From: a virus
Taxonomy: Duplodnaviria > Heunggongvirae > Uroviricota > Caudoviricetes
Direction: 5' to 3' (one strand)
Length of the DNA stretch: 18,003 nt
Virus record (IMG/VR): IMGVR_UViG_3300021279_000020
Under the pieces are notes generated by a model. That model was not told where the DNA came from, did no database searches, and saw nothing but the letters and a program-made list of their open reading frames with translations. Each line of letters starts with the position of its first letter. Position 1 is the stretch's first letter. Position numbers and translations under genes: made by a program. Shown here piece by piece: positions 1,129-18,003 of the stretch.

Positions 1129-1133
1129 GCCCA

Positions 1134-1160
1134 TAAAAAAAGCCCCTCCGGAGAGGGGCT
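1134..1160 (-). terminator. Rho-independent terminator (8-bp stem AGCCCCTC/GAGGGGCT, 4-nt loop, then U7 on the minus strand)
   Basis: Plus strand shows AAAAAAA then AGCCCCTCCGGAGAGGGGCT; on the minus strand this is hairpin followed by TTTTTTT. It lies downstream of the TerB / small-peptide pair. Confidence 0.6.
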
Positions 1161-1403
1161 GACGCTGCGTATCTGTATCATCATGCGCATGGTGCCGGGT
1201 GCCTCCCGGTGAGTTCAGTATCAGCACCTGAACCCGCACAGAAAGGATAAGGGATGTAACCAAACACCTGTCGCTGATATGCCCCTCCGCACAGGGGGAT
1301 TCACCATGCAGGATTTTTTTAACAAATTCTCAGTCGGGCAGACAACTGTCAACCGTCTGAATTGTGAGACATTTAAAATTTTCGGGGCATGACTGATACC
1401 CGG

Positions 1404-2165: not shown

Positions 2166-2242
2166 TGGCGCGTTGTACTGGATTCGAACCAATGACCGAT
2201 TGCTTAGAAGGCAATTGCTCTGTCCGGCTGAGCTAACAACGC
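2166..2242 (-). tRNA. tRNA-Arg (anticodon UCU), 77 nt
   Basis: Reverse complement folds as a canonical cloverleaf: acceptor GCGTTGT/ACAACGC, D-arm GCTC..GAGC, anticodon stem ATTGC/GCAAT with loop CTTCTAA, T-loop GGTTCGAATCC, discriminator G and encoded CCA. Confidence 0.9.
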
Positions 2243-2255
2243 AGTGTACCGATAA

Positions 2256-2332
2256 TGGACCGCCATCGAGGACTCGACCCCCGCGCAACCAGCTTCGAAG
2301 GCTGGCGCTCTGTCCCGATGAGCTAATGGCGG
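2256..2332 (-). tRNA. tRNA-Arg-like (anticodon UCG), 77 nt, non-canonical features (C1:G72 acceptor pair, T-loop GUCGAGU)
   Basis: Reverse complement: acceptor CCGCCAT/ATGGCGG, D-arm GCTC..GAGC, anticodon stem CCAGC/GCTGG with loop CTTCGAA, T-stem CGGGG/CCTCG, encoded CCA. Confidence 0.7.
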
Positions 2333-2341
2333 TATGTGATA

Positions 2342-2417
2342 TGGTGGCCCTTGCTGGATTTGAACCAGCGACCTGGCGATTATGAGTCGCTCGCTCTCAC
2401 CACTGAGCTAAAGGGCC
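2342..2417 (-). tRNA. tRNA with CAU anticodon, most similar in my recollection to tRNA-Ile2 (ileX-like, lysidine-modified), 76 nt
   Basis: Reverse complement GGCCCTTTAGCTCAGTGGTGAGAGCGAGCGACTCATAATCGCCAGGTCGCTGGTTCAAATCCAGCAAGGGCCACCA gives a complete cloverleaf with anticodon loop CTCATAA. Confidence 0.88.
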
Positions 2418-2457: not shown

Positions 2458-3516
2458 TCATCCGTTCTGACTGACTAAATCCTGAACTTCCCTGACCGTC
2501 TGCTCAAAACGTTCAGTCTCCAGCTCAACGCCAGTTGCACGACGTCCCAGCGCCATCGCTGCTTTGACTGTCGAACCCGACCCCATGAAAAAATCTGCAA
2601 CCAGGTCACCCGGACGACTGCTCGCGCTGATTATCTGCTGCAGCATTTCTGCTGGTTTTTCGCACGGATGTTTCCCGGGATAGTACTGCACCGGTTTATG
2701 CGTCCACACATCGGTGTACGGAACCTGCGCCGTCACGCCAAAATACCGCCGCAGATACTTATATTCACTCTGCAGTTCCGCATACTGCCGGTTCAGTTCA
2801 CTGTATGTGCTGACCAGTTGGTGATGTAGCTTTTCCAGTTCTCCGCGCTGATGCTTCTCTTCTGCCACCCGGGCAAACAGCGCCTGTAATTTCAGATAAT
2901 CGCTTTCGTCCGGTAGCTGCCACTGGCTGGCACTGAACCAGTGCGACACCATGTTTTTCTTTCCTGTGGCATCAGCAATCTGTTTTGCCGTTATCCCCAG
3001 GGCAGCACGTGCATCACGAAAGTAAGAAATCAGCGGGGCCATCACATGCTGTTTCAGTGCCCTGCCCTTCGCCTCATACCCGGCATCTTTCGGGCGATAC
3101 GGCCCCTGATAATGTTCCGCGAACAGAATGCGCTCTGTGGCGGGGAAATACGCCCGCAGGCTTTCCTTGTTGCACCCGTTCCAGCGTCCGGACGGCTTCG
3201 CCCAGATAATATGGTTCAGCACACTGAAGCGTTCACGCATCATGATTTCAATGTCAGACGCCAGGCGATGACCACAGAACAGGTAAAGACTTCCGGCAGG
3301 TTTCAGCACCCGCCAGAACTGCGCAAGACACTGGTCCAGCCATTTCAGGTAATCCTCATCCCCCGTCCACTGGTTATCCCAGCCCTCGGGCTTCACTTTA
3401 AAGTATGGCGGGTCTGTGACTATCAGATCGACAGAGTTTTCCGGTAAGGTCTGGATAAATTCCAGGCAATCAGCGTTGATTAGCTCACAACTGGATATTT
3501 TTACAGTATTAGCCAT
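2458..3516 (-). CDS. Orphan DNA methyltransferase (beta-class N6-adenine/N4-cytosine type), 352 aa
   Basis: Track ORF with ATG at 3516. Motif IV LIVTDPPY is near the N-terminus and the AdoMet motif FFMGSGST near the C-terminus. No adjacent endonuclease candidate. Confidence 0.9.
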   Translation of the reverse strand: MANTVKISSCELINADCLEFIQTLPENSVDLIVTDPPYFKVKPEGWDNQWTGDEDYLKWLDQCLAQFWRVLKPAGSLYLFCGHRLASDIEIMMRERFSVLNHIIWAKPSGRWNGCNKESLRAYFPATERILFAEHYQGPYRPKDAGYEAKGRALKQHVMAPLISYFRDARAALGITAKQIADATGKKNMVSHWFSASQWQLPDESDYLKLQALFARVAEEKHQRGELEKLHHQLVSTYSELNRQYAELQSEYKYLRRYFGVTAQVPYTDVWTHKPVQYYPGKHPCEKPAEMLQQIISASSRPGDLVADFFMGSGSTVKAAMALGRRATGVELETERFEQTVREVQDLVSQNG

Positions 3517-3652
3517 AGATCAATAAGCACTTCTCTGATAGGCTCATTCTGCTTTTGCGCAAAGCAGTGGGCCTGAGGTTTGCTTGTGATCCGGACGCAT
3601 GAGCAGATGGCTGGTGAGTGCCCCTAACACCCACCAGCCGCCCATTTACCAC

Positions 3653-3864: not shown

Positions 3865-3987
3865 GTCTTTTCCCCTTTTCCGGTTAACGTGACACACCAA
3901 TAACTCTTGTCGAAAAAGCCAGCAAGCTGAAAGAACGGTATTAATAACCACCAGCGAATTTATTGCGCTGCTGTATATTACGGACAC

Positions 3988-5021: not shown

Positions 5022-6071
5022 TTACCCGAGCACGCCAGTCGCAAAGGCGTGATCAAGAAAACGAAAAATTAACTCAATCTGAGAGCCGTACTTTTTCTCA
5101 AACTCCAGCGGGTCTGCATGAAGTTCGTTGTGGTGCTCCCGGCACAACGGTAGCGTGAAAATATCGTGGGCCTTTGTCCCCATTCCCCCCTGACCATGAC
5201 CAATCAGGTGATGCGGATCGTCAGCAGGCTTACCACAACACGCACACGGCTGTGTCTTTACCCAGCGCGTGTATTTCTCATTAACCCAACGGCGACGTTT
5301 AGGCCGCCTCATGAACGATTCAGGAGACTCCGGATCAACAGCGATACTGACAACCGTTTTTTTCTGTGGTGGATTTTGTTGCTGGTGGACGTGAAGTGGC
5401 AGCGCAATATTTTTTGTGCGCTGCTTCAGTATGCTGATGGCTGTCTGTTCTCCCGGTACGATGTCACTCTCACGGTATACGGAGCGGATTTTTTCCACCG
5501 GTAATCCCAGCGAACGACGCGCTACTGCCTCAGGTAGTGCATCCACCACCTGATTGCAGGCCGCCCACCAGGATAATTCGGCCAGCGATAACTCCCTCTC
5601 CTGCGTACCGTTTATTGCGTGACGTATAACATCAATCATCCAGACTGCCAGATTCTGCTGAGCAAGTTGATCGAGTGATTCTGATGTCTGGTCGCGCAGC
5701 TGGTTGTCACAGTGCCAGCACAACACCATCGCGCCGGTACCGTAACGGTGAATGACGGTTTCGCTGTGATGATAATCGCCGTGTGGCCACTGGCAGGATT
5801 TCACGTGACGTAATAACCAGTCAGACAGTGCACCTGCACCACCTGCTGCACGAATAACCCGCTCATCGCTGAAAAATGGCAGTAATGTTTCATCCTCTGC
5901 CAGCGGCTGGCGAACGGCAGGAACGACTCCGGACGGCAGACCGCGCATGTTTTTCGGTTCCGGCTCTACCAATATTCTGCCGTTATGGAATGCTGACATT
6001 GATTCACGGCCCGGCTTAAGGAGCACCATCCCGAGTTCCGGTACCAGAACAGGTCGAAGTAATACCCGCAC
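5022..6071 (-). CDS. DUF968-family prophage protein with C-terminal HNH-like motif (YdfU-like), 349 aa, GTG start
   Basis: Track ORF. RBS GGAGG lies 5 nt upstream of GTG 6071. C-terminal CxxC...HH...CREHHNELH is a zinc-binding HNH-type signature. The DUF968 then hok neighbourhood resembles the K-12 Qin arrangement as I recall it. Confidence 0.75.
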   Translation of the reverse strand: MRVLLRPVLVPELGMVLLKPGRESMSAFHNGRILVEPEPKNMRGLPSGVVPAVRQPLAEDETLLPFFSDERVIRAAGGAGALSDWLLRHVKSCQWPHGDYHHSETVIHRYGTGAMVLCWHCDNQLRDQTSESLDQLAQQNLAVWMIDVIRHAINGTQERELSLAELSWWAACNQVVDALPEAVARRSLGLPVEKIRSVYRESDIVPGEQTAISILKQRTKNIALPLHVHQQQNPPQKKTVVSIAVDPESPESFMRRPKRRRWVNEKYTRWVKTQPCACCGKPADDPHHLIGHGQGGMGTKAHDIFTLPLCREHHNELHADPLEFEKKYGSQIELIFRFLDHAFATGVLG

Positions 6072-6513: not shown

Positions 6514-6669
6514 TTACTTCTCAGATTCGTAGTCTACGAAGACAGCAACCTCCGTCTGGCCGGTTCGGATTCGTACCTCGCAGAGGTCTTTCCTCGTTAC
6601 CAGTGCCGTCACTATGACGGTTAAACAGATGACGATCAGGGCGATTAACATCGCCTTTTGCTGCTTCAT
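6514..6669 (-). CDS. hok: Hok/Gef-family type I toxin, 51 aa (MKQQKAMLIALIVICLTVIVTALVTRKDLCEVRIRTGQTEVAVFVDYESEK)
   Basis: Near-identity by recollection to E. coli HokD/RelF. Single TM helix followed by a conserved C-terminal region. Confidence 0.88.
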   Translation of the reverse strand: MKQQKAMLIALIVICLTVIVTALVTRKDLCEVRIRTGQTEVAVFVDYESEK

Positions 6670-6726
6670 AGTCTGCTTCTCCTTGACCTTTCGGTCCGTA
6701 AGAGGCAATCTATATGTGACGAGCAT
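6514..6726 (-). CDS. mok: Mok-like in-frame N-terminal extension reading frame over hok (MLVTYRLPLTDRKVKEKQT then Hok)
   Basis: Track ORF 6514..6726. The extension matches my recollection of the MokC N-terminus (MLNTCRVPLTDRKVKEKRA). Confidence 0.6.
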   Translation of the reverse strand: MLVTYRLPLTDRKVKEKQTMKQQKAMLIALIVICLTVIVTALVTRKDLCEVRIRTGQTEVAVFVDYESEK

Positions 6727-6780
6727 ATAGGGGCCTCACTTCGATTTATAGTCGGGTGGGGCTTTTATCTATCTGCCGTT
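6715..6780 (+). ncRNA. sok: Possible Sok-like antisense RNA opposite the mok start; coordinates approximate
   Basis: Inferred from hok/mok architecture. A plus-strand -35-like TTGACC sits at 6683-6688. I could not place the -10 or the terminator with confidence. Confidence 0.3.
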
Positions 6781-6914
6781 GGTGTTCATGCCCGAGGCAG
6801 ATAGCCTCAAGCACCCGCAGCAATTCTACAAAAACAAACTATTATTTTCTATGTCCTTTCACTTGTCTCATTTCTGACTATACTGATCGCTCACACAACA
6901 CAAAAGGTATAAAA

Positions 6915-7130: not shown

Positions 7131-7214
7131 TCATCCCCAGCGGCAAATCGAATACACCACCAGCGCCACCGCCATTGCAATTCCTACCGCCACGAATGCC
7201 TCAGGCCAGGTCAT
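7131..7214 (-). CDS. Candidate hydrophobic micro-protein, 27 aa (MTWPEAFVAVGIAMAVALVVYSICRWG), ATG overlapping the stop of the upstream 160-aa gene (ATGA)
   Basis: Hand translation. SD GGAGG lies about 10 nt upstream. Single predicted TM helix. Below the track size cutoff. Confidence 0.4.
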   Translation of the reverse strand: MTWPEAFVAVGIAMAVALVVYSICRWG

Positions 7215-12822: not shown

Positions 12823-13242
12823 ATGGTTCATGAAGATGAAGCGCGTAAAGAGTTCGCCAGCAGGCTTGCGCTAGCCTGTGAAAATGCTGGCTTTGAACAA
12901 CACGGAAGGCAGGCAGAAATTGCCCGTCGAATGAAGCTAACACCCAAAGCGGTTAGTAAATGGTTTAATGGAGAGACAATTCCCCGTCGAGAGAAACTGA
13001 AAGAATTGGCAGCACTTATCGGAACAACACCAACTTACCTTCTGGGGGAGGACACTGAAGAAAGCGGAAGCCTGCGTTTCTATCAGGAGTTAAGTCCGAG
13101 GCAAAAAATCATCATTGAACTTCTTGATGAACTCCCTGACAGTGAAACTGATGAACTTTTAAAAACTCTTGAGGAGAAAAAACAGAAGTACAACGCAATT
13201 TATGAAGAATTAGCGCGAAAGAAAAAACAAAAAGCCTCATGA
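12823..13242 (+). CDS. CI-like repressor, HTH_XRE N-terminal domain with coiled-coil C-terminus, 139 aa; no S24/LexA-type peptidase domain
   Basis: Track ORF. HTH segment GRQAEIARRMKLTPKAVSKWFNGE. The C-terminus is Lys/Glu-rich and helical, and the protein is too short for a peptidase domain. Confidence 0.8.
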   Translation: MVHEDEARKEFASRLALACENAGFEQHGRQAEIARRMKLTPKAVSKWFNGETIPRREKLKELAALIGTTPTYLLGEDTEESGSLRFYQELSPRQKIIIELLDELPDSETDELLKTLEEKKQKYNAIYEELARKKKQKAS

Positions 13243-13365: not shown

Positions 13366-13537
13366 AACCAACCACCCCACCCACAGAACGCCAGGCAATA
13401 CTTCGAGTTACCCGGCAGTGGTCAGGAGTTAAGTAGCCAGCCCGAGGCGTATGAACATGACGGCGGGAACACTTTGTATAACAGCGCAGCAGGTTTTTAG
13501 TTCCGCTACCCCGGCGTTAAGGGGAAATGAGGTCAAC

Positions 13538-13690
13538 ATGGATACGCTCAATCTTGGCAACAACGAATCTCTGGTATGCGGTGTGTTCCCTAACCAGGAC
13601 GGCACGTTTACCGCGATGACGTATACCAAAAGTAAAAAGTTTAAAACCGAAGCTGGCGCGCGTCGCTGGTTAGCCAGAAACACTAACTGA
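13538..13690 (+). CDS. Small early protein, 50 aa (possibly DUF1391/YdfA-like); alternative start ATG 13451
   Basis: Track ORF 13451..13690. SD GAGG lies 7 nt upstream of ATG 13538. Confidence 0.5.
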   Translation: MDTLNLGNNESLVCGVFPNQDGTFTAMTYTKSKKFKTEAGARRWLARNTN

Positions 13691-14180
13691 TTAGCACCAG
13701 TAAAAACAGGTTGCCACTGGTTAATTTACCCTGAAAAGTCAGGGCATAACACGAAAGCGCACGGCGAAGTTCGTATATCTGTACGGCGTCGTTAAATTTT
13801 CTTCGACCGTGCACTTCCGGTTGTGGCAATCCGCGAAATGGCGCGGCGGTAAGTATGGCTGGGGTTTCCTCCATTGCTCCAGAAAATGCACCGGGTTGTC
13901 AGGTTGACCATACGCTTAAGTGACAGCCCCGCCACAATACCCATGTGTAGTCTTTGGTGGCATCAGTTCTACTCCGTGACTGCTCTGCCACCCTTTTTAA
14001 AGTGAATTTTGTGATGCGGTGAATGCGGCTATGCGCACGCGGAACAGTTAAAACCGTAAAGTGGTCTTTTACGGGGCGTAACGGGCATACTTCTGTATTC
14101 CGGCGTTAATTGTTAACTGGTTAACGTCACCTGGAGGCACCAGGCACCACATCACAAAATTCATTGTTGAGGACGCGATA

Positions 14181-14369
14181 ATGGAAACGTTATTACCAAA
14201 CGTTAATACGTCTGAAGGGTGTTTTGATATTGGTGTTCTGCTCAGTAACCGGGAGTTTACTGAAGATGCCATTAAGATGAGAAAATATGAGCCTTATCTT
14301 CTCAATGATAATTCCATACTCTCCAGAATTGCCCTTCTTAAACTTGGTATTTTCGGGGGGCAGCAGTGA
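14181..14369 (+). CDS. Hypothetical small protein, 62 aa
   Basis: Track ORF with SD GAGGA 8 nt upstream of ATG 14181. Confidence 0.55.
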   Translation: METLLPNVNTSEGCFDIGVLLSNREFTEDAIKMRKYEPYLLNDNSILSRIALLKLGIFGGQQ

Positions 14370-14554
14370 CTTCTGCATTTGCACTGGTAATGACTGTTTT
14401 TCTTATAACGGGTGAGCCACAGAATGTGATTACCGGAATTTATGCCAGTAAAGAATCATGCCTCCGTACAAGAGACGAGCAAAAAATTTCTGGCGAATGC
14501 CTCCCGTTAAAAAAAGTATCGCTGTACCTGAATAACGAAATACCGGCTGGATAA
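14366..14554 (+). CDS. Hypothetical small protein, 62 aa, with hydrophobic N-terminus (signal-peptide or TM-like); GTG start overlapping the upstream stop (GTGA)
   Basis: Track ORF. GGGGGG lies 5 nt upstream of GTG 14366. N-terminus TSAFALVMTVFLITG. Confidence 0.5.
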   Translation: MTSAFALVMTVFLITGEPQNVITGIYASKESCLRTRDEQKISGECLPLKKVSLYLNNEIPAG

Positions 14555-14646
14555 TCCACCAGCCATATTAACGCCATACCCGTTGATTAAGCATGCCAGC
14601 AATGGCAGGGGTTCGTACAACCTTAAAATAGTTATGAGGTTTATCC

Positions 14647-16311
14647 ATGAGCACTGATAAAGAAGAATTTTCGCTATATTGCGAAGCAAAAAATGACAAG
14701 GTCAGAAAACGCCTTGGGATTAAAGGGGGTTTTTACTGGACTACAGCAAAAAAATTATCTGTTGCCATCTCACGGTGCGTTGTTGCAATGGACGAGGCAG
14801 GCTACGACGCTGATGATTTCAAAAAACCTGTCCGCGTCCATTTCCCCGTTGTGAATGACCTTCCACCGGAAGGCGTGTTTGATACCGAATTCTGCAACCG
14901 CTATGAAAAAGGCGGGGAAGATGGCATCACAATGATATTTATAGCGCCTTCCCCCTCAGTTCAGGACAAACCAGCCAGCACTGACAATACCAACGTCAAT
15001 GGCGAAGACATGGCTGAGATTGAGGATAATATGCTCCTGCCGATTTCCGGTCAGGAACTGCCCATTCGCTGGCTTGCGCAACATGGCAGCGAAAAACCGG
15101 TAACGCACGTTTCACGGGAAGAACTTCAGGCATTACATATCGCACGAGCTGAAGAACTACCGGCTGTTACTGGCCTGGCTATTTCCCACAACACAAAGCT
15201 GCTCGACCCGCTGGAGATTCGCGACCTTCACAAACTGGTACGCGACACAGACAAAGTTTTCCCTAATCCCGTTAATTCCAGTCTGGGGTTAATGACTGCT
15301 TTTTTCGAAGCATACCTGAACGCTGACTATACCGATCGAGGTCTGCTGACAAAAGAGTGGATGAAAGGAAATCGTGTTTCTCGCATCACCCGCACGGCTT
15401 CCGGTGCAAATGCCGGTGGCGGAAATAAAACGGATCGTAATCCTGATTTAGTACACACCCTCGATACTCTGGATGTGGAGATTGCAGCAGCCACACTTCC
15501 GATGGATTTTAATATTTATGAAATTCCCGTGAGCGTTTATCGTCGCGCAAAAGAAATCGTCCTGAAAAAAGAAAGTCCGTTCAGGGAATGGTCCCCAGCA
15601 CTTCGCGCAACCCCTGGTATCCTGGACTATTCCCGCGCAGCTATTTTTGCACTTATCCGGAGCGCCCACCCTGAGTTTTATCACTACCCGGGACGTCTTC
15701 AGGGGTATATCAATGCCAACCTGACAGAGACCGATCACGAGAATCCCACAGCTGAAACGCTCATGGCTGCCCGGCATACACCGGAAAAAGATATCCTGGA
15801 AGAAATTAACCGCGAGCTGGCTGCTGAGTGCAAAACAGAAGAAGAAAAAAATGATGAAGAAAACCCGCAACCATCTGGCGCAATGGCAGATGAACAGGCA
15901 ACGGCTGAAACAATGGCAGCGGATACAGTTGAACATCATCAGGACCCGCAGCCGCTGGATGACAAGTCACAGGTAAAAGTTACCGCTGAAGAAGTAAATA
16001 AAATTATGGAGGCAGCAGACATCAGTCGACCAGATGCAGACAAATTGCTTGCCGCTTCCCGTGGTGAGTTCGTTGAAGGCATCAGTGACCCTGCCGATCC
16101 GAAGTGGGTTAAGGGGATCCAGAGTCGCGACGCCGAGGACCAGAACCAGCAAGAAACAGAACAGAACGGTCAGAAAGCGGAACAAAACAGCCCAAATGCG
16201 TTACAAAACGAGCCAGAAACGAAACAACCTGAACCAGTCGTGCAACATACCAGGAGACATTCAACGAAGAAAGCCAGGATGAAGCCCGGGAGAAAGATCC
16301 AGAGGAAATGA
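14647..16311 (+). CDS. RecE (exodeoxyribonuclease VIII) N-terminal-region-like protein, 554 aa, with a long acidic low-complexity C-terminal tail; no recognisable nuclease domain
   Basis: Track ORF with SD GAGGT 8 nt upstream. The segment NTNVNGEDM..EIE.NMLLPISGQELPIRWLAQHGSEKPVTHVSR...NADYTDRGLLTKEWMKGNRVS matches my recollection of the non-catalytic N-terminal part of RecE. Unverified. Confidence 0.65.
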   Translation: MSTDKEEFSLYCEAKNDKVRKRLGIKGGFYWTTAKKLSVAISRCVVAMDEAGYDADDFKKPVRVHFPVVNDLPPEGVFDTEFCNRYEKGGEDGITMIFIAPSPSVQDKPASTDNTNVNGEDMAEIEDNMLLPISGQELPIRWLAQHGSEKPVTHVSREELQALHIARAEELPAVTGLAISHNTKLLDPLEIRDLHKLVRDTDKVFPNPVNSSLGLMTAFFEAYLNADYTDRGLLTKEWMKGNRVSRITRTASGANAGGGNKTDRNPDLVHTLDTLDVEIAAATLPMDFNIYEIPVSVYRRAKEIVLKKESPFREWSPALRATPGILDYSRAAIFALIRSAHPEFYHYPGRLQGYINANLTETDHENPTAETLMAARHTPEKDILEEINRELAAECKTEEEKNDEENPQPSGAMADEQATAETMAADTVEHHQDPQPLDDKSQVKVTAEEVNKIMEAADISRPDADKLLAASRGEFVEGISDPADPKWVKGIQSRDAEDQNQQETEQNGQKAEQNSPNALQNEPETKQPEPVVQHTRRHSTKKARMKPGRKIQRK

Positions 16312-17000
16312 AAAGTGCCGTATACCCGAACAAGGAGTGCACCGAAGGCGATCAACATGCCAATGGCAATAATGAAACAGGCGAGACAGCAAATCCCTTA
16401 ATTAAGGTGAGCGGTCATCATGAAAGCACATCCACCAGCAGGTTGTGGCACCATCTGATGATTGACCTTGAAACAATGGGCAAAAATCCTGATGCGCCAA
16501 TAGCCTCAATAGGCGCTGTATTTTTCGATCCACAAACCGGAGAGCAGGGGCCTGAATTCAGCAAAATAATTGATATGGGTACATGTGGCGGCACTGTAGA
16601 CATAAGCACCATCGAATGGTGGCTTCAACGCTCTGGCGAAGCCCGTGCCGCCATTTTAGCTGATCGAATACCGCTTGATGATGCGCTTTTACAATTACGG
16701 GAATTTATAGACGAAAACTCCGGTGAGTTTTTTGTTCAGGTCTGGGGAAATGGAGCCAACTTCGACAACGTGATTTTACGCCGTTCATATGAACGGCAGG
16801 AGATCCCCTGCCCGTGGCGTTACACCAATGATCGCGATGTAAGAACGATGGTCGCTCTGGGGTTGGTGATGGATTTCGATGCCCGCAACGTCACCACATT
16901 TGAGGGTGAACGCCATAATGCCCTGCACGATGCGCGTTACCAGGCAAAATACGTTTCAGTTATCTGGCAAAAACTGTTCCCGAATCAGGCTGATTTTTAA
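16308..17000 (+). CDS. DEDDh-family 3'-5' exonuclease (DnaQ-like), 230 aa; ATG overlapping the upstream stop (ATGA)
   Basis: Track ORF. Exo I motif MIDLETMG, Exo II WGNGANFD and Exo III HNALHDARY. Alternative start at Met51 (16458). Confidence 0.85.
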   Translation: MKSAVYPNKECTEGDQHANGNNETGETANPLIKVSGHHESTSTSRLWHHLMIDLETMGKNPDAPIASIGAVFFDPQTGEQGPEFSKIIDMGTCGGTVDISTIEWWLQRSGEARAAILADRIPLDDALLQLREFIDENSGEFFVQVWGNGANFDNVILRRSYERQEIPCPWRYTNDRDVRTMVALGLVMDFDARNVTTFEGERHNALHDARYQAKYVSVIWQKLFPNQADF

Positions 17001-17070: not shown

Positions 17071-17322
17071 ATGAGTGAAGTAATCATGATTGTCTCTCCC
17101 GGCAAATGGGTATCTGAAGAGCAGTTAATTGCGCTGAAAGGAATAAAAAAAGGAACACTGAAAAAAGCCAGGGAAAAATCATTTATGGAAGGGAGAGAGT
17201 ATAAACATGTCGCTCATGACGGCATGCCGTGGGATAACAGCCCATGTTTTTACAATCTGGAAGAAATTGATCGCTGGATCGAGCGTCAGGCATCGGCAAG
17301 GCCAAGACGTCACCTTGCTTAA
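17071..17322 (+). CDS. Excisionase-like small DNA-binding protein (Xis/DUF1233-like), 83 aa
   Basis: Track ORF immediately upstream of the integrase; small basic protein with EGREY and W motifs. Alternative start ATG 17086. Confidence 0.55.
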   Translation: MSEVIMIVSPGKWVSEEQLIALKGIKKGTLKKAREKSFMEGREYKHVAHDGMPWDNSPCFYNLEEIDRWIERQASARPRRHLA

Positions 17323-17356: not shown

Positions 17357-17893
17357 ATGAAATATCCGACAGGCGTAGAAAAACACGGGGGGACATTACG
17401 CATCTGGTTTGTTTATAAAGGCGTAAGAGTCAGGGAAAACCTCGGTGTCCCTGACACAGTAAAAAACAGACGCATCGCTGGTGAACTACGCGCTTCTGTT
17501 TGTTACGCAATAAAAACGGGGATTTTTGACTACGCAAAACAGTTCCCCTACTCCCACAATCTGGAAAAATTTGGGGAAGCCAGACAAAATTTGACGATAG
17601 GTGAACTGGCCGAAAAATTTCTGGCACTAAAAGAGGCCGAAGTTGCCAGAAGTTCACTCAATACATACCGTGCCGTCATCAAAAATATCCTGAGCATAAT
17701 CGGTGAAAAAAATCTTGCCTCATCGATTAATAAAGAAAAATTACTGGAGGTTCGTAAAGAGTTACTGACTGGATACCAGATCCCCAAAAGTAACTATATT
17801 GTTACACAACCCGGGAGATCGGCTGTTACCGTAAATAATTACATGACAAATCTTAACGCCGTGTTCCAGTTTGGTGGTAAGCGTACAGCCTGA
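17357..17893 (+). pseudogene. Tyrosine integrase N-terminal fragment (arm-binding plus core-binding regions only, 178 aa); the reading frame ends and the catalytic domain is missing
   Basis: Track ORF with N-terminus MKYPTGVEKHGGTLRIWFVYKG typical of integrase arm-binding domains. All three forward frames hit stops within about 30 nt after 17893. Confidence 0.65.
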
Positions 17894-18003
17894 ACCGTCT
17901 GGTCAGAATCTGACGAATTAGACAAAGTGGTGTCCACCAAATAAGTAGTGGGAACCAAAGTGTCAGATATGCAGAAAAATGTGACTCCCGGCAGGCGAAA
18001 AGG

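Follow-up and report, generated by a model that had tools for sequence, protein, structure and literature searches.

A prophage gene joining a RecE-like N-terminal region to a predicted DEDDh 3'-5' exonuclease, apparently split by an 85-bp deletion in a lambdoid Escherichia coli prophage

The window analysed here, the 18,003 nucleotides (nt) of the IMG/VR virus record IMGVR_UViG_3300021279_000020, is the early region of a lambdoid Escherichia coli prophage. This work concerns two open reading frames (ORFs) on its plus strand. The first (14647..16311) encodes 554 amino acids (aa) and the second (16308..17000) encodes 230 aa, with the ATG of the second overlapping the stop codon of the first as ATGA. 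A sequence-only reading had described the pair as a coupled two-gene recombination or DNA-processing module, in which a protein resembling the N-terminal part of RecE precedes a DEDDh exonuclease and which is atypical in lacking an annealase. The positions of both ORFs, their overlap, the three DEDDh motifs and an open stretch of about 75 nt upstream of the second ATG were all found as described. While the observation was confirmed, its interpretation is partly supported. The comparison with related prophages indicates that the two ORFs are a single gene of about 812 codons, broken by an 85-bp deletion, and not a two-gene module.

The 554-aa product matches the Pfam family PF06630 (Exonuc_VIII) with an E-value of 4e-34 at aa 51-189. 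It also matches the NCBIfam model NF007259 (exodeoxyribonuclease VIII) with 760 bits over positions 1-530 of 877, and an intact 812-aa homologue scores 871 bits over positions 1-602 of 877; the curated cut-off of this equivalog is 1269 bits, which neither protein reaches. An AlphaFold2 model of the 554-aa ORF contains a small alpha/beta domain (aa 4-100) and helical domains up to about aa 380, after which a disordered acidic and glutamine-rich linker follows. The RecE-N-terminal-like region, representing the 5' part of the putative ancestral gene, covers 14647..16247 on the plus strand (aa 1-534). The protein had been said to end in an acidic tail. An acidic low-complexity stretch does exist at aa ~361-534 (D/E at 43 of 174 positions), but it is followed by an out-of-frame tail of 20 aa that is basic (K/R at 10 of 20 positions; TRRHSTKKARMKPGRKIQRK) and that occupies 16248..16311 on the plus strand together with the TGA stop codon.

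The 230-aa ORF represents the 3' part of the ancestral gene (16308..17000, plus strand) and contains the remaining linker and a predicted DEDDh 3'-5' exonuclease domain at nt ~16449-16967 (aa 48-220, plus strand). It matches PF16473 (Rv2179c-like) over the full-length domain (positions 1-177) with an E-value of 2e-63 and 214 bits, compared to a gathering cut-off of 27. The earlier assignment to this fold and not to the PD-(D/E)xK nucleases, to which RecE belongs, is therefore well supported by the family match and by the five catalytic residues. All of these (D53, E55, D153, H203 and D208) are kept and align with D7, E9, D119, H186 and D191 of DexA. The sole solved relative by sequence is the 227-aa protein of the PDB entries 8kel/8ken (phmmer E-value 5e-7). 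Although deposited as 'Exodeoxyribonuclease', 8kel was identified as T4 DexA by its residue numbering and by the S87A/D90A mutant 8ken (PMC12153337). A GAGG motif lies 2 nt upstream of the ATG of the 230-aa ORF. Upstream of this ATG, the exonuclease frame stays open for exactly 75 nt, which read ATYQETFNEESQDEAREKDPEE, the ancestral sequence in the alternative frame to the tail of the 554-aa ORF. GenBank gene callers start the second ORF past the catalytic D53/E55, resulting in a product of 174 aa.

Compared to the intact alleles L001, L002, L003 and L013, 85 bp are absent at the junction 16247..16248 (plus strand). The deleted segment encodes a CxxC-x7-CxxC zinc ribbon and is bounded by the direct repeats GCAACA / GCAAC(C/A). 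Short direct repeats at the ends of a deletion are the usual signature of slippage or microhomology deletion. Since 85 is not a multiple of three, the frame is shifted and the upstream frame runs through 20 basic junk codons until it stops at 16309-16311. Apart from the deletion, the closest allele (L013/P0001 from E. coli O146, 99 % identical) differs at only 17 of 2,354 bases. The ATG of the second ORF corresponds to an internal Met of the ancestral protein, which is Ile in L003. For this reason, the ATGA overlap that had suggested coupling appears to be accidental.

A megablast search against 5,426 complete E. coli genomes found the region with at least 80 % coverage in 1,052 genomes. In the relatives opened, it is a single gene of 2,439 nt that is annotated as 'exonuclease' and encodes 812 aa, for example in ATCC 25922 (WP_000102132.1) and STEC1585, and nearly all of the best 120 protein clusters are 812 aa long and combine PF06630 with PF16473. 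A fusion had been held to be possible but not required. It does exist, including in the closest allele, and as judged from its distribution it appears to be the ancestral and overwhelmingly common state instead of a mere possibility. The E. coli prophage protein catalogued as 'exonuclease' or '3'-5' exoribonuclease domain-containing protein', such as P0001, to which the window copy is 99 % identical, is thus the same gene with the same neighbours, namely dicB, DUF1482, xis and int. The window copy differs from the intact gene in the lack of the 85 bp, the consequent reading as 554 and 230 aa, and the loss of the zinc ribbon. The intact ORF is itself not annotated consistently: in one case (L002 4048-6486, NZ_CP046539.1) and in three further matches, the Prokaryotic Genome Annotation Pipeline (PGAP) splits the 812-aa ORF into a 'RecE family exodeoxyribonuclease' pseudogene and a 597-aa 'exonuclease'. 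As this ORF has no internal stop codon, the split seems to be an artefact to which its chimeric architecture gave rise during annotation.

The intact homologue aligns with residues 42-591 of the K-12 RecE at 55 % identity (E-value 0). This alignment covers the acidic linker and the zinc ribbon and ends at ..ETGE.A.P.I, shortly before the PD-(D/E)xK domain of RecE (PF12684, DUF3799; residues 615-850). Neither of the window ORFs contains PF12684, nor does the intact 812-aa homologue. The 554-aa protein is therefore related to RecE, and only to its non-catalytic N-terminal part, as had been proposed. That the similarity stops at the boundary of the nuclease domain points to a clean exchange of the catalytic domain alone, with the N-terminal region being kept. 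The nearest representatives of the DEDDh domain, clustered at 50 % identity, are mostly the C-termini of proteins with 550-900 aa. Nine of the ten scanned representatives with a C-terminal DEDDh domain also carry PF06630, and one has a complete K-12-type RecE N-terminus. The combination of the RecE N-terminal region with a DEDDh domain thus appears to be old and stable. Only RecE and the members of the E. coli type have the zinc ribbon. A third Pfam family, PF27432, is present in the precomputed annotations of many chimera members from outside E. coli (P0168, P0302-P0324).

The tenth representative, P0151 (823 aa), differs in its first ~256 residues, which correspond to the K-12 Qin pseudogene ydfE. 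The K-12 ydfE (L014 4079-4999) matches residues 1-256 of this DEDDh variant with 99 % identity and is the N-terminus, truncated by the insertion sequence (IS) element IS2, of this sister protein, which shares the middle region and the DEDDh domain with the window gene. ydfE is also located at the same chromosomal site beside rspB and at the same operon position after dicB-ydfD, whereas the first ~256 residues of its type are unrelated to the RecE-like N-terminus of the window gene. K-12 YdfE is thus not a RecE-like N-terminus itself, and BLASTP shows no similarity between the two.

Exactly the same 554-aa product is encoded on 8 contigs, which belong to two isolate assemblies of NCBI and to metagenomes of JGI, Logan and ENA. 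All six contigs that were fetched contain the junction. Five of them are identical over the whole of 14647-17000, and the sixth, L010, ends inside the gene. A 40-nt query spanning the junction had no match in the 5,426 complete E. coli genomes, and an exact junction search in one genome per species (GTDB representatives) had no match either, so that neither set includes the source strain. In L010 (JGI 3300037678), which was compared to window positions 13367-16802, the same junction lies behind a different immunity region with YdaS/YdaT, another helix-turn-helix (HTH) repressor and a PaaA2/ParE toxin-antitoxin pair. This suggests that the broken allele moved between prophage backgrounds by recombination. 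The locus in the window is probably decaying, as its integrase is also disrupted by an IS.

Two other explanations of the split were considered. An assembly or sequencing artefact, or a frameshift bypassed by programmed ribosomal frameshifting, could be suspected in a region of low complexity and repetitive composition. However, the junction is identical in two isolate assemblies and several independent metagenome assemblies, a loss of 85 bp is not a homopolymer error, and reading the translated sequence by eye revealed no X XXY YYZ slippery heptamer in 16248-16311, so that this explanation is hardly credible. A functional split, in which an N-terminal scaffold and a DEDDh exonuclease work as two translationally coupled proteins, has more in its favour. 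The GAGG just upstream of the ATGA overlap and the five intact catalytic residues would suit it, stand-alone DEDDh proteins of ~180 aa are common in the family, and the allele persists on 8 contigs in two immunity backgrounds. Against this, the deletion behind the arrangement has a length not divisible by three and left 20 junk residues, the ATG is an unconserved internal Met, and the GAGG is only 2 nt away from it. In addition, the junction is absent from the complete E. coli genomes, and the second ORF as called in GenBank lacks the first two catalytic residues. Nor have the copies diverged from one another, as would be needed to detect selection on the two ORFs. Taken together, a functional split is considered unlikely, and a deletion within a single ancestral gene is preferred.

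The window contains the early-left operon from the repressor up to int, although int itself is truncated by an IS. Besides the gene discussed here, this operon holds only DUF1391, DicF, DicB and DUF1482, and the E. coli relatives have the same early-left content. No annealase family was matched in any sizeable ORF of the window, in agreement with the reported lack of one before xis/int. Because the operon lies within the window, a RecT/Bet protein or a RecE nuclease immediately outside is not a concern. In 29 loci from other Enterobacterales (Kluyvera, Pluralibacter, Enterobacter, Citrobacter, Phytobacter, Kosakonia, Buttiauxella and Leclercia), the order is repressor, a few small genes, a long exonuclease gene (676-851 aa), xis and int. 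The 63 upstream same-strand ORFs of at least 90 aa in these loci yielded no match to an annealase family. The absence of an annealase had been regarded as atypical, a view that does not hold, given that it recurs in all 29 loci and fits the class of lambdoid prophages without a Rec module and with many Chi sites. Prophages of this Chi-rich lineage normally have no annealase. Other recombination genes were likewise not recognisable by family scans, in which RecBCD inhibitors (Gam, Abc2) were covered only by the Pfam scans of the listed ORFs. recT was found in 1,749 genomes and lies beside a PD-(D/E)xK recE in all 13 listed matches that fully cover recT, out of 14 shown. Of the 29 loci from other genera, 16 encode a winged-helix protein of the Rrf2 family (~123-128 aa) at a distance of ~140-520 nt upstream of the long exonuclease gene. 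Where inspected (e.g. L029 7428-7796), this small gene is directly upstream of the exonuclease gene, in the position held by dicB/DUF1482 in E. coli.

The Chi sequence (GCTGGTGG) occurs eight times in the window, compared to 0.57 expected from shuffles. Six of these sites are on the minus strand (1460-1467, 3631-3638, 3948-3955, 7157-7164, 14556-14563 and 16432-16439) and two on the plus strand (678-685 and 5381-5388). The site at 14556-14563 lies between the DUF1482 gene and the 554-aa ORF, and the one at 16432-16439 within the exonuclease coding sequence. The minus strand of the window corresponds to the top strand of the lambda map, and we infer that it is the active Chi orientation. The 29 related early regions contain 163 Chi sites in 329 kb (1 per 2.0 kb, 0.49 per kb), a density of about twice that of the E. 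coli chromosome. Of these sites, 142 (87 %) are on the strand that matches the bias in the window, and most loci have at least one Chi inside the homologous exonuclease gene. In contrast, four Rac-type early regions with RecE and RecT contain no Chi in 48 kb. The DEDDh chimera tracks a Chi-rich, annealase-less prophage lineage.

These properties can be compared to those of known systems. The RecE of the K-12 Rac prophage shares the N-terminal ~590 residues, including the acidic linker and the zinc ribbon, and the same slot of the lambdoid early-left operon upstream of xis/int. It differs in its PD-(D/E)xK 5'-3' nuclease, where the fusion has a predicted DEDDh 3'-5' exonuclease, and in its RecT partner, which the fusion lacks. 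Moreover, Rac-type regions are free of Chi, whereas the prophage of the fusion is rich in it. Lambdoid phages without their own Rec module have been described as Chi-enriched and as using the host RecBCD (Bobay et al. 2013, PMC3784561; Zheng et al. 2025, PMC12315714). With this class (LLS type in PMC12315714; Rec- Inh- in PMC3784561), the lineage studied here shares the high Chi density, the strong orientation bias and the fact that no annealase or recognised RecBCD inhibitor was found. The class is defined by the lack of all Rec proteins, whereas here a nuclease with a RecE-like front is conserved beside int. Sporadic int-proximal DnaQ-type nucleases and a 'RecE-2' without a recognisable nuclease domain are mentioned in PMC12315714, where both are set aside.

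We consider it likely that one ancestral fusion gene was split by the deletion and that the family has a role other than that of RecET in a Chi-rich lineage. The ancestral protein of ~812 aa, encoded on the early-left (pL) side, would have consisted of folded N-terminal domains, a long disordered acidic linker, a small zinc ribbon and the DEDDh 3'-5' exonuclease. The deletion between the GCAAC(A) repeats removed the zinc ribbon and shifted the frame, producing the 554-aa N-terminal fragment with its junk tail. The nuclease half was left as the 230-aa ORF, the first ATG of which overlaps the new stop codon by chance. In the window copy, the N-terminal part, possibly serving as targeting or scaffold part, would be uncoupled from the nuclease, although termination-reinitiation at the ATGA may still allow the nuclease half to be translated. 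The intact protein is predicted to be a Mg-dependent exonuclease acting on DNA 3' ends and made after prophage induction together with dicF and dicB. We infer that it does not serve for resection in a pair of exonuclease and annealase, since it has the wrong polarity for this and a partner is missing.

A lineage without an annealase would rely on the host RecBCD, Chi and RecA. RecBCD requires ends that are blunt or nearly so, which host 3' exonucleases help to provide. As a tentative proposal based on domain content and genomic context, the exonuclease could trim 3' tails or ends, for example by making ends onto which RecBCD can load, or it could degrade competing DNA. Early-lytic processing of DNA 3' ends, which would suit a RecBCD-dependent phage, is the favoured role, with the degradation of competing DNA as the alternative. 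Several points weigh against the explanation as a whole. A literature search found no paper on the fusion and no experiment bearing on its function. RecA needs 3' tails, which a 3'-5' exonuclease would destroy, so that a role in favour of recombination is not obvious. According to PMC12315714, such nucleases usually inhibit recombination, and int-proximal DnaQ-type genes are excluded there from the members of Rec modules. The Rac regions that served as controls for Chi are near relatives and amount to one lineage, and the K-12 Qin remnant (6.7 kb) contains no Chi. Furthermore, the presence of the deletion allele in two immunity backgrounds implies that it persisted and spread, which is compatible with a retained function.

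Two rival functions have to be weighed against a RecBCD-helping role. The gene could be one half of a RecET- or Red-like module whose annealase is unrecognised or located outside the window, as might be expected from its RecE-like N-terminal region and from its position in the slot that recE-recT occupies in Rac. This is very improbable: the operon from repressor to int, the latter being truncated by an IS, is inside the window and holds besides this gene only DUF1391, DicF, DicB and DUF1482, neither the window nor the 63 upstream ORFs of the 29 loci contain an annealase family, the 3'-5' polarity cannot produce the 3' tails used by an annealase, and recT lies beside a PD-(D/E)xK recE in 13 of the 14 matches shown, which are all that cover recT fully. 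The other rival is a prophage-encoded defence of the HREX/EcD type, which would degrade the cytosine-modified (5-hydroxymethylcytosine, 5hmC) DNA of invading T-even phages in the manner of DexA. In its sequence, the DEDDh domain is homologous to T4 DexA (8kel). Kang et al. 2025 (PMC12153337) showed for EcD, a homologue of DexA in E. coli, that it digests T4 DNA and protects cells, and they reported such homologues to be common in Escherichia.

The similarity to these enzymes has limits, however. T4 DexA, EcD and Rv2179c of M. tuberculosis, the founder of PF16473, share the DEDDh fold family and the catalytic residues with the window nuclease, but they are stand-alone proteins of ~180-230 aa, whereas the window nuclease was ancestrally fused, and its identity to DexA is low. 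The Trp of DexA that recognises 5hmC, W152, is not conserved in the window protein, where its equivalent is T173; this equivalence depends on the alignment, and the family column contains W in 37 of 84 sequences. D90, a tetramer-forming Asp that is changed to Ala in EcD, is retained as D125, and the equivalent of DexA D169 is D by phmmer and V187 by MAFFT, the two alignments being different here. EcD is a distant relative that stands alone and starts with MIDTET, and no protein with this start was present among the nearest 150 cluster representatives. The gene is located in a repressed early-left operon beside int and is not a moron expressed in the lysogen. PADLOC reported no match for the 812-aa protein and only a weak generic match to a Cas-associated DEDDh nuclease for the 230-aa ORF. 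An anti-phage role of the HREX type is therefore less likely than help for RecBCD, and we regard it as quite improbable.

The surrounding genes are those of a lambdoid early region. On the plus strand, a cI-like HTH repressor (12823..13242; Pfam HTH_3, in synteny with L005 and L006) starts the early-left side and is followed by DUF1391, the small RNA (sRNA) DicF (13942-13993; Rfam), dicB (14181-14369; Pfam DicB) and a DUF1482/ydfD-like gene (14366-14554; Pfam DUF1482). DicF, dicB and the DUF1482/ydfD-like gene directly precede the 554-aa ORF in the same operon, as in the K-12 Qin annotation. Downstream of the two ORFs, an excisionase gene (17071..17322; Pfam DUF1233) and the 5' part of an integrase gene with the Arm-DNA-binding domain (17357..17876; Pfam) follow, also on the plus strand. 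The integrase is cut at ~17876 and shortened to 178 aa by the end of an IS66-like element, as the last 127 bases of the window (17877-18003) match the ends of IS66-family elements upstream of tnpA in thousands of records. In the isolate L006, which has the identical 85-bp deletion, the integrase is intact (424 aa) and adjoins rspB, the Qin attachment site. A promoter scan around the locus found 4 promoter-like sites compared to 6.5 in shuffles and thus no sign of a separate promoter, and 9 terminator-like sites compared to 6.5 (standard deviation 2.7), a marginal excess.

The minus strand carries cro-like, YdaT-like, DnaT-like/O, P, DUF1627, hok/sok and DUF968 genes, and further on the RusA region, a Q-like gene (DUF1133), a DNA methylase gene and tRNA genes, with names drawn partly from the annotation of the relative L005. 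The sok antitoxin RNA (Rfam; 6667-6816, minus strand) overlaps a 70-aa ORF (6514-6726), the L005 counterpart of which is annotated as Hok/Gef. The sRNA STnc100 was found by Rfam at 1129-1338 (minus strand). Three tRNA genes (Arg-tct, Arg-tcg and Met/Ile-cat; 2166-2417, minus strand) adjoin the DNA methylase gene (2458-3516) and lie on the late-gene side of the Q-like gene.

The locus in the window is a damaged copy of a common, catalogued and uncharacterised prophage gene and not a new recombination module. Nevertheless, the family to which it belongs exposes an annotation problem, since its 812-aa ORFs are sometimes split by PGAP, and it bears on the role of the RecE N-terminus and on whether lambdoid phages without Rec proteins encode no recombination helper at all. 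The function of the RecE N-terminal region was described as unclear in a 2023 review of recombineering (PMC11610958). The ~590-residue region is conserved independently of RecT and of the polarity of the nuclease. A more speculative idea, to which we assign a rather low likelihood, is that this region is a portable delivery or scaffold module for nucleases of either polarity. If this were true, the module would work with RecT in Chi-free prophages when joined to the PD-(D/E)xK 5'-3' domain, and when joined to the DEDDh domain it would be the only DNA enzyme conserved in those lambdoid prophages that are rich in Chi and lack an annealase. The DEDDh version would then cooperate with the host RecBCD, for instance by clearing 3' tails from phage DNA ends, onto which RecBCD could load to reach the correctly oriented Chi sites. 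The exchange of the nuclease would thereby mark a switch between two recombination strategies of these prophages, one that supersedes the host and one that uses it.

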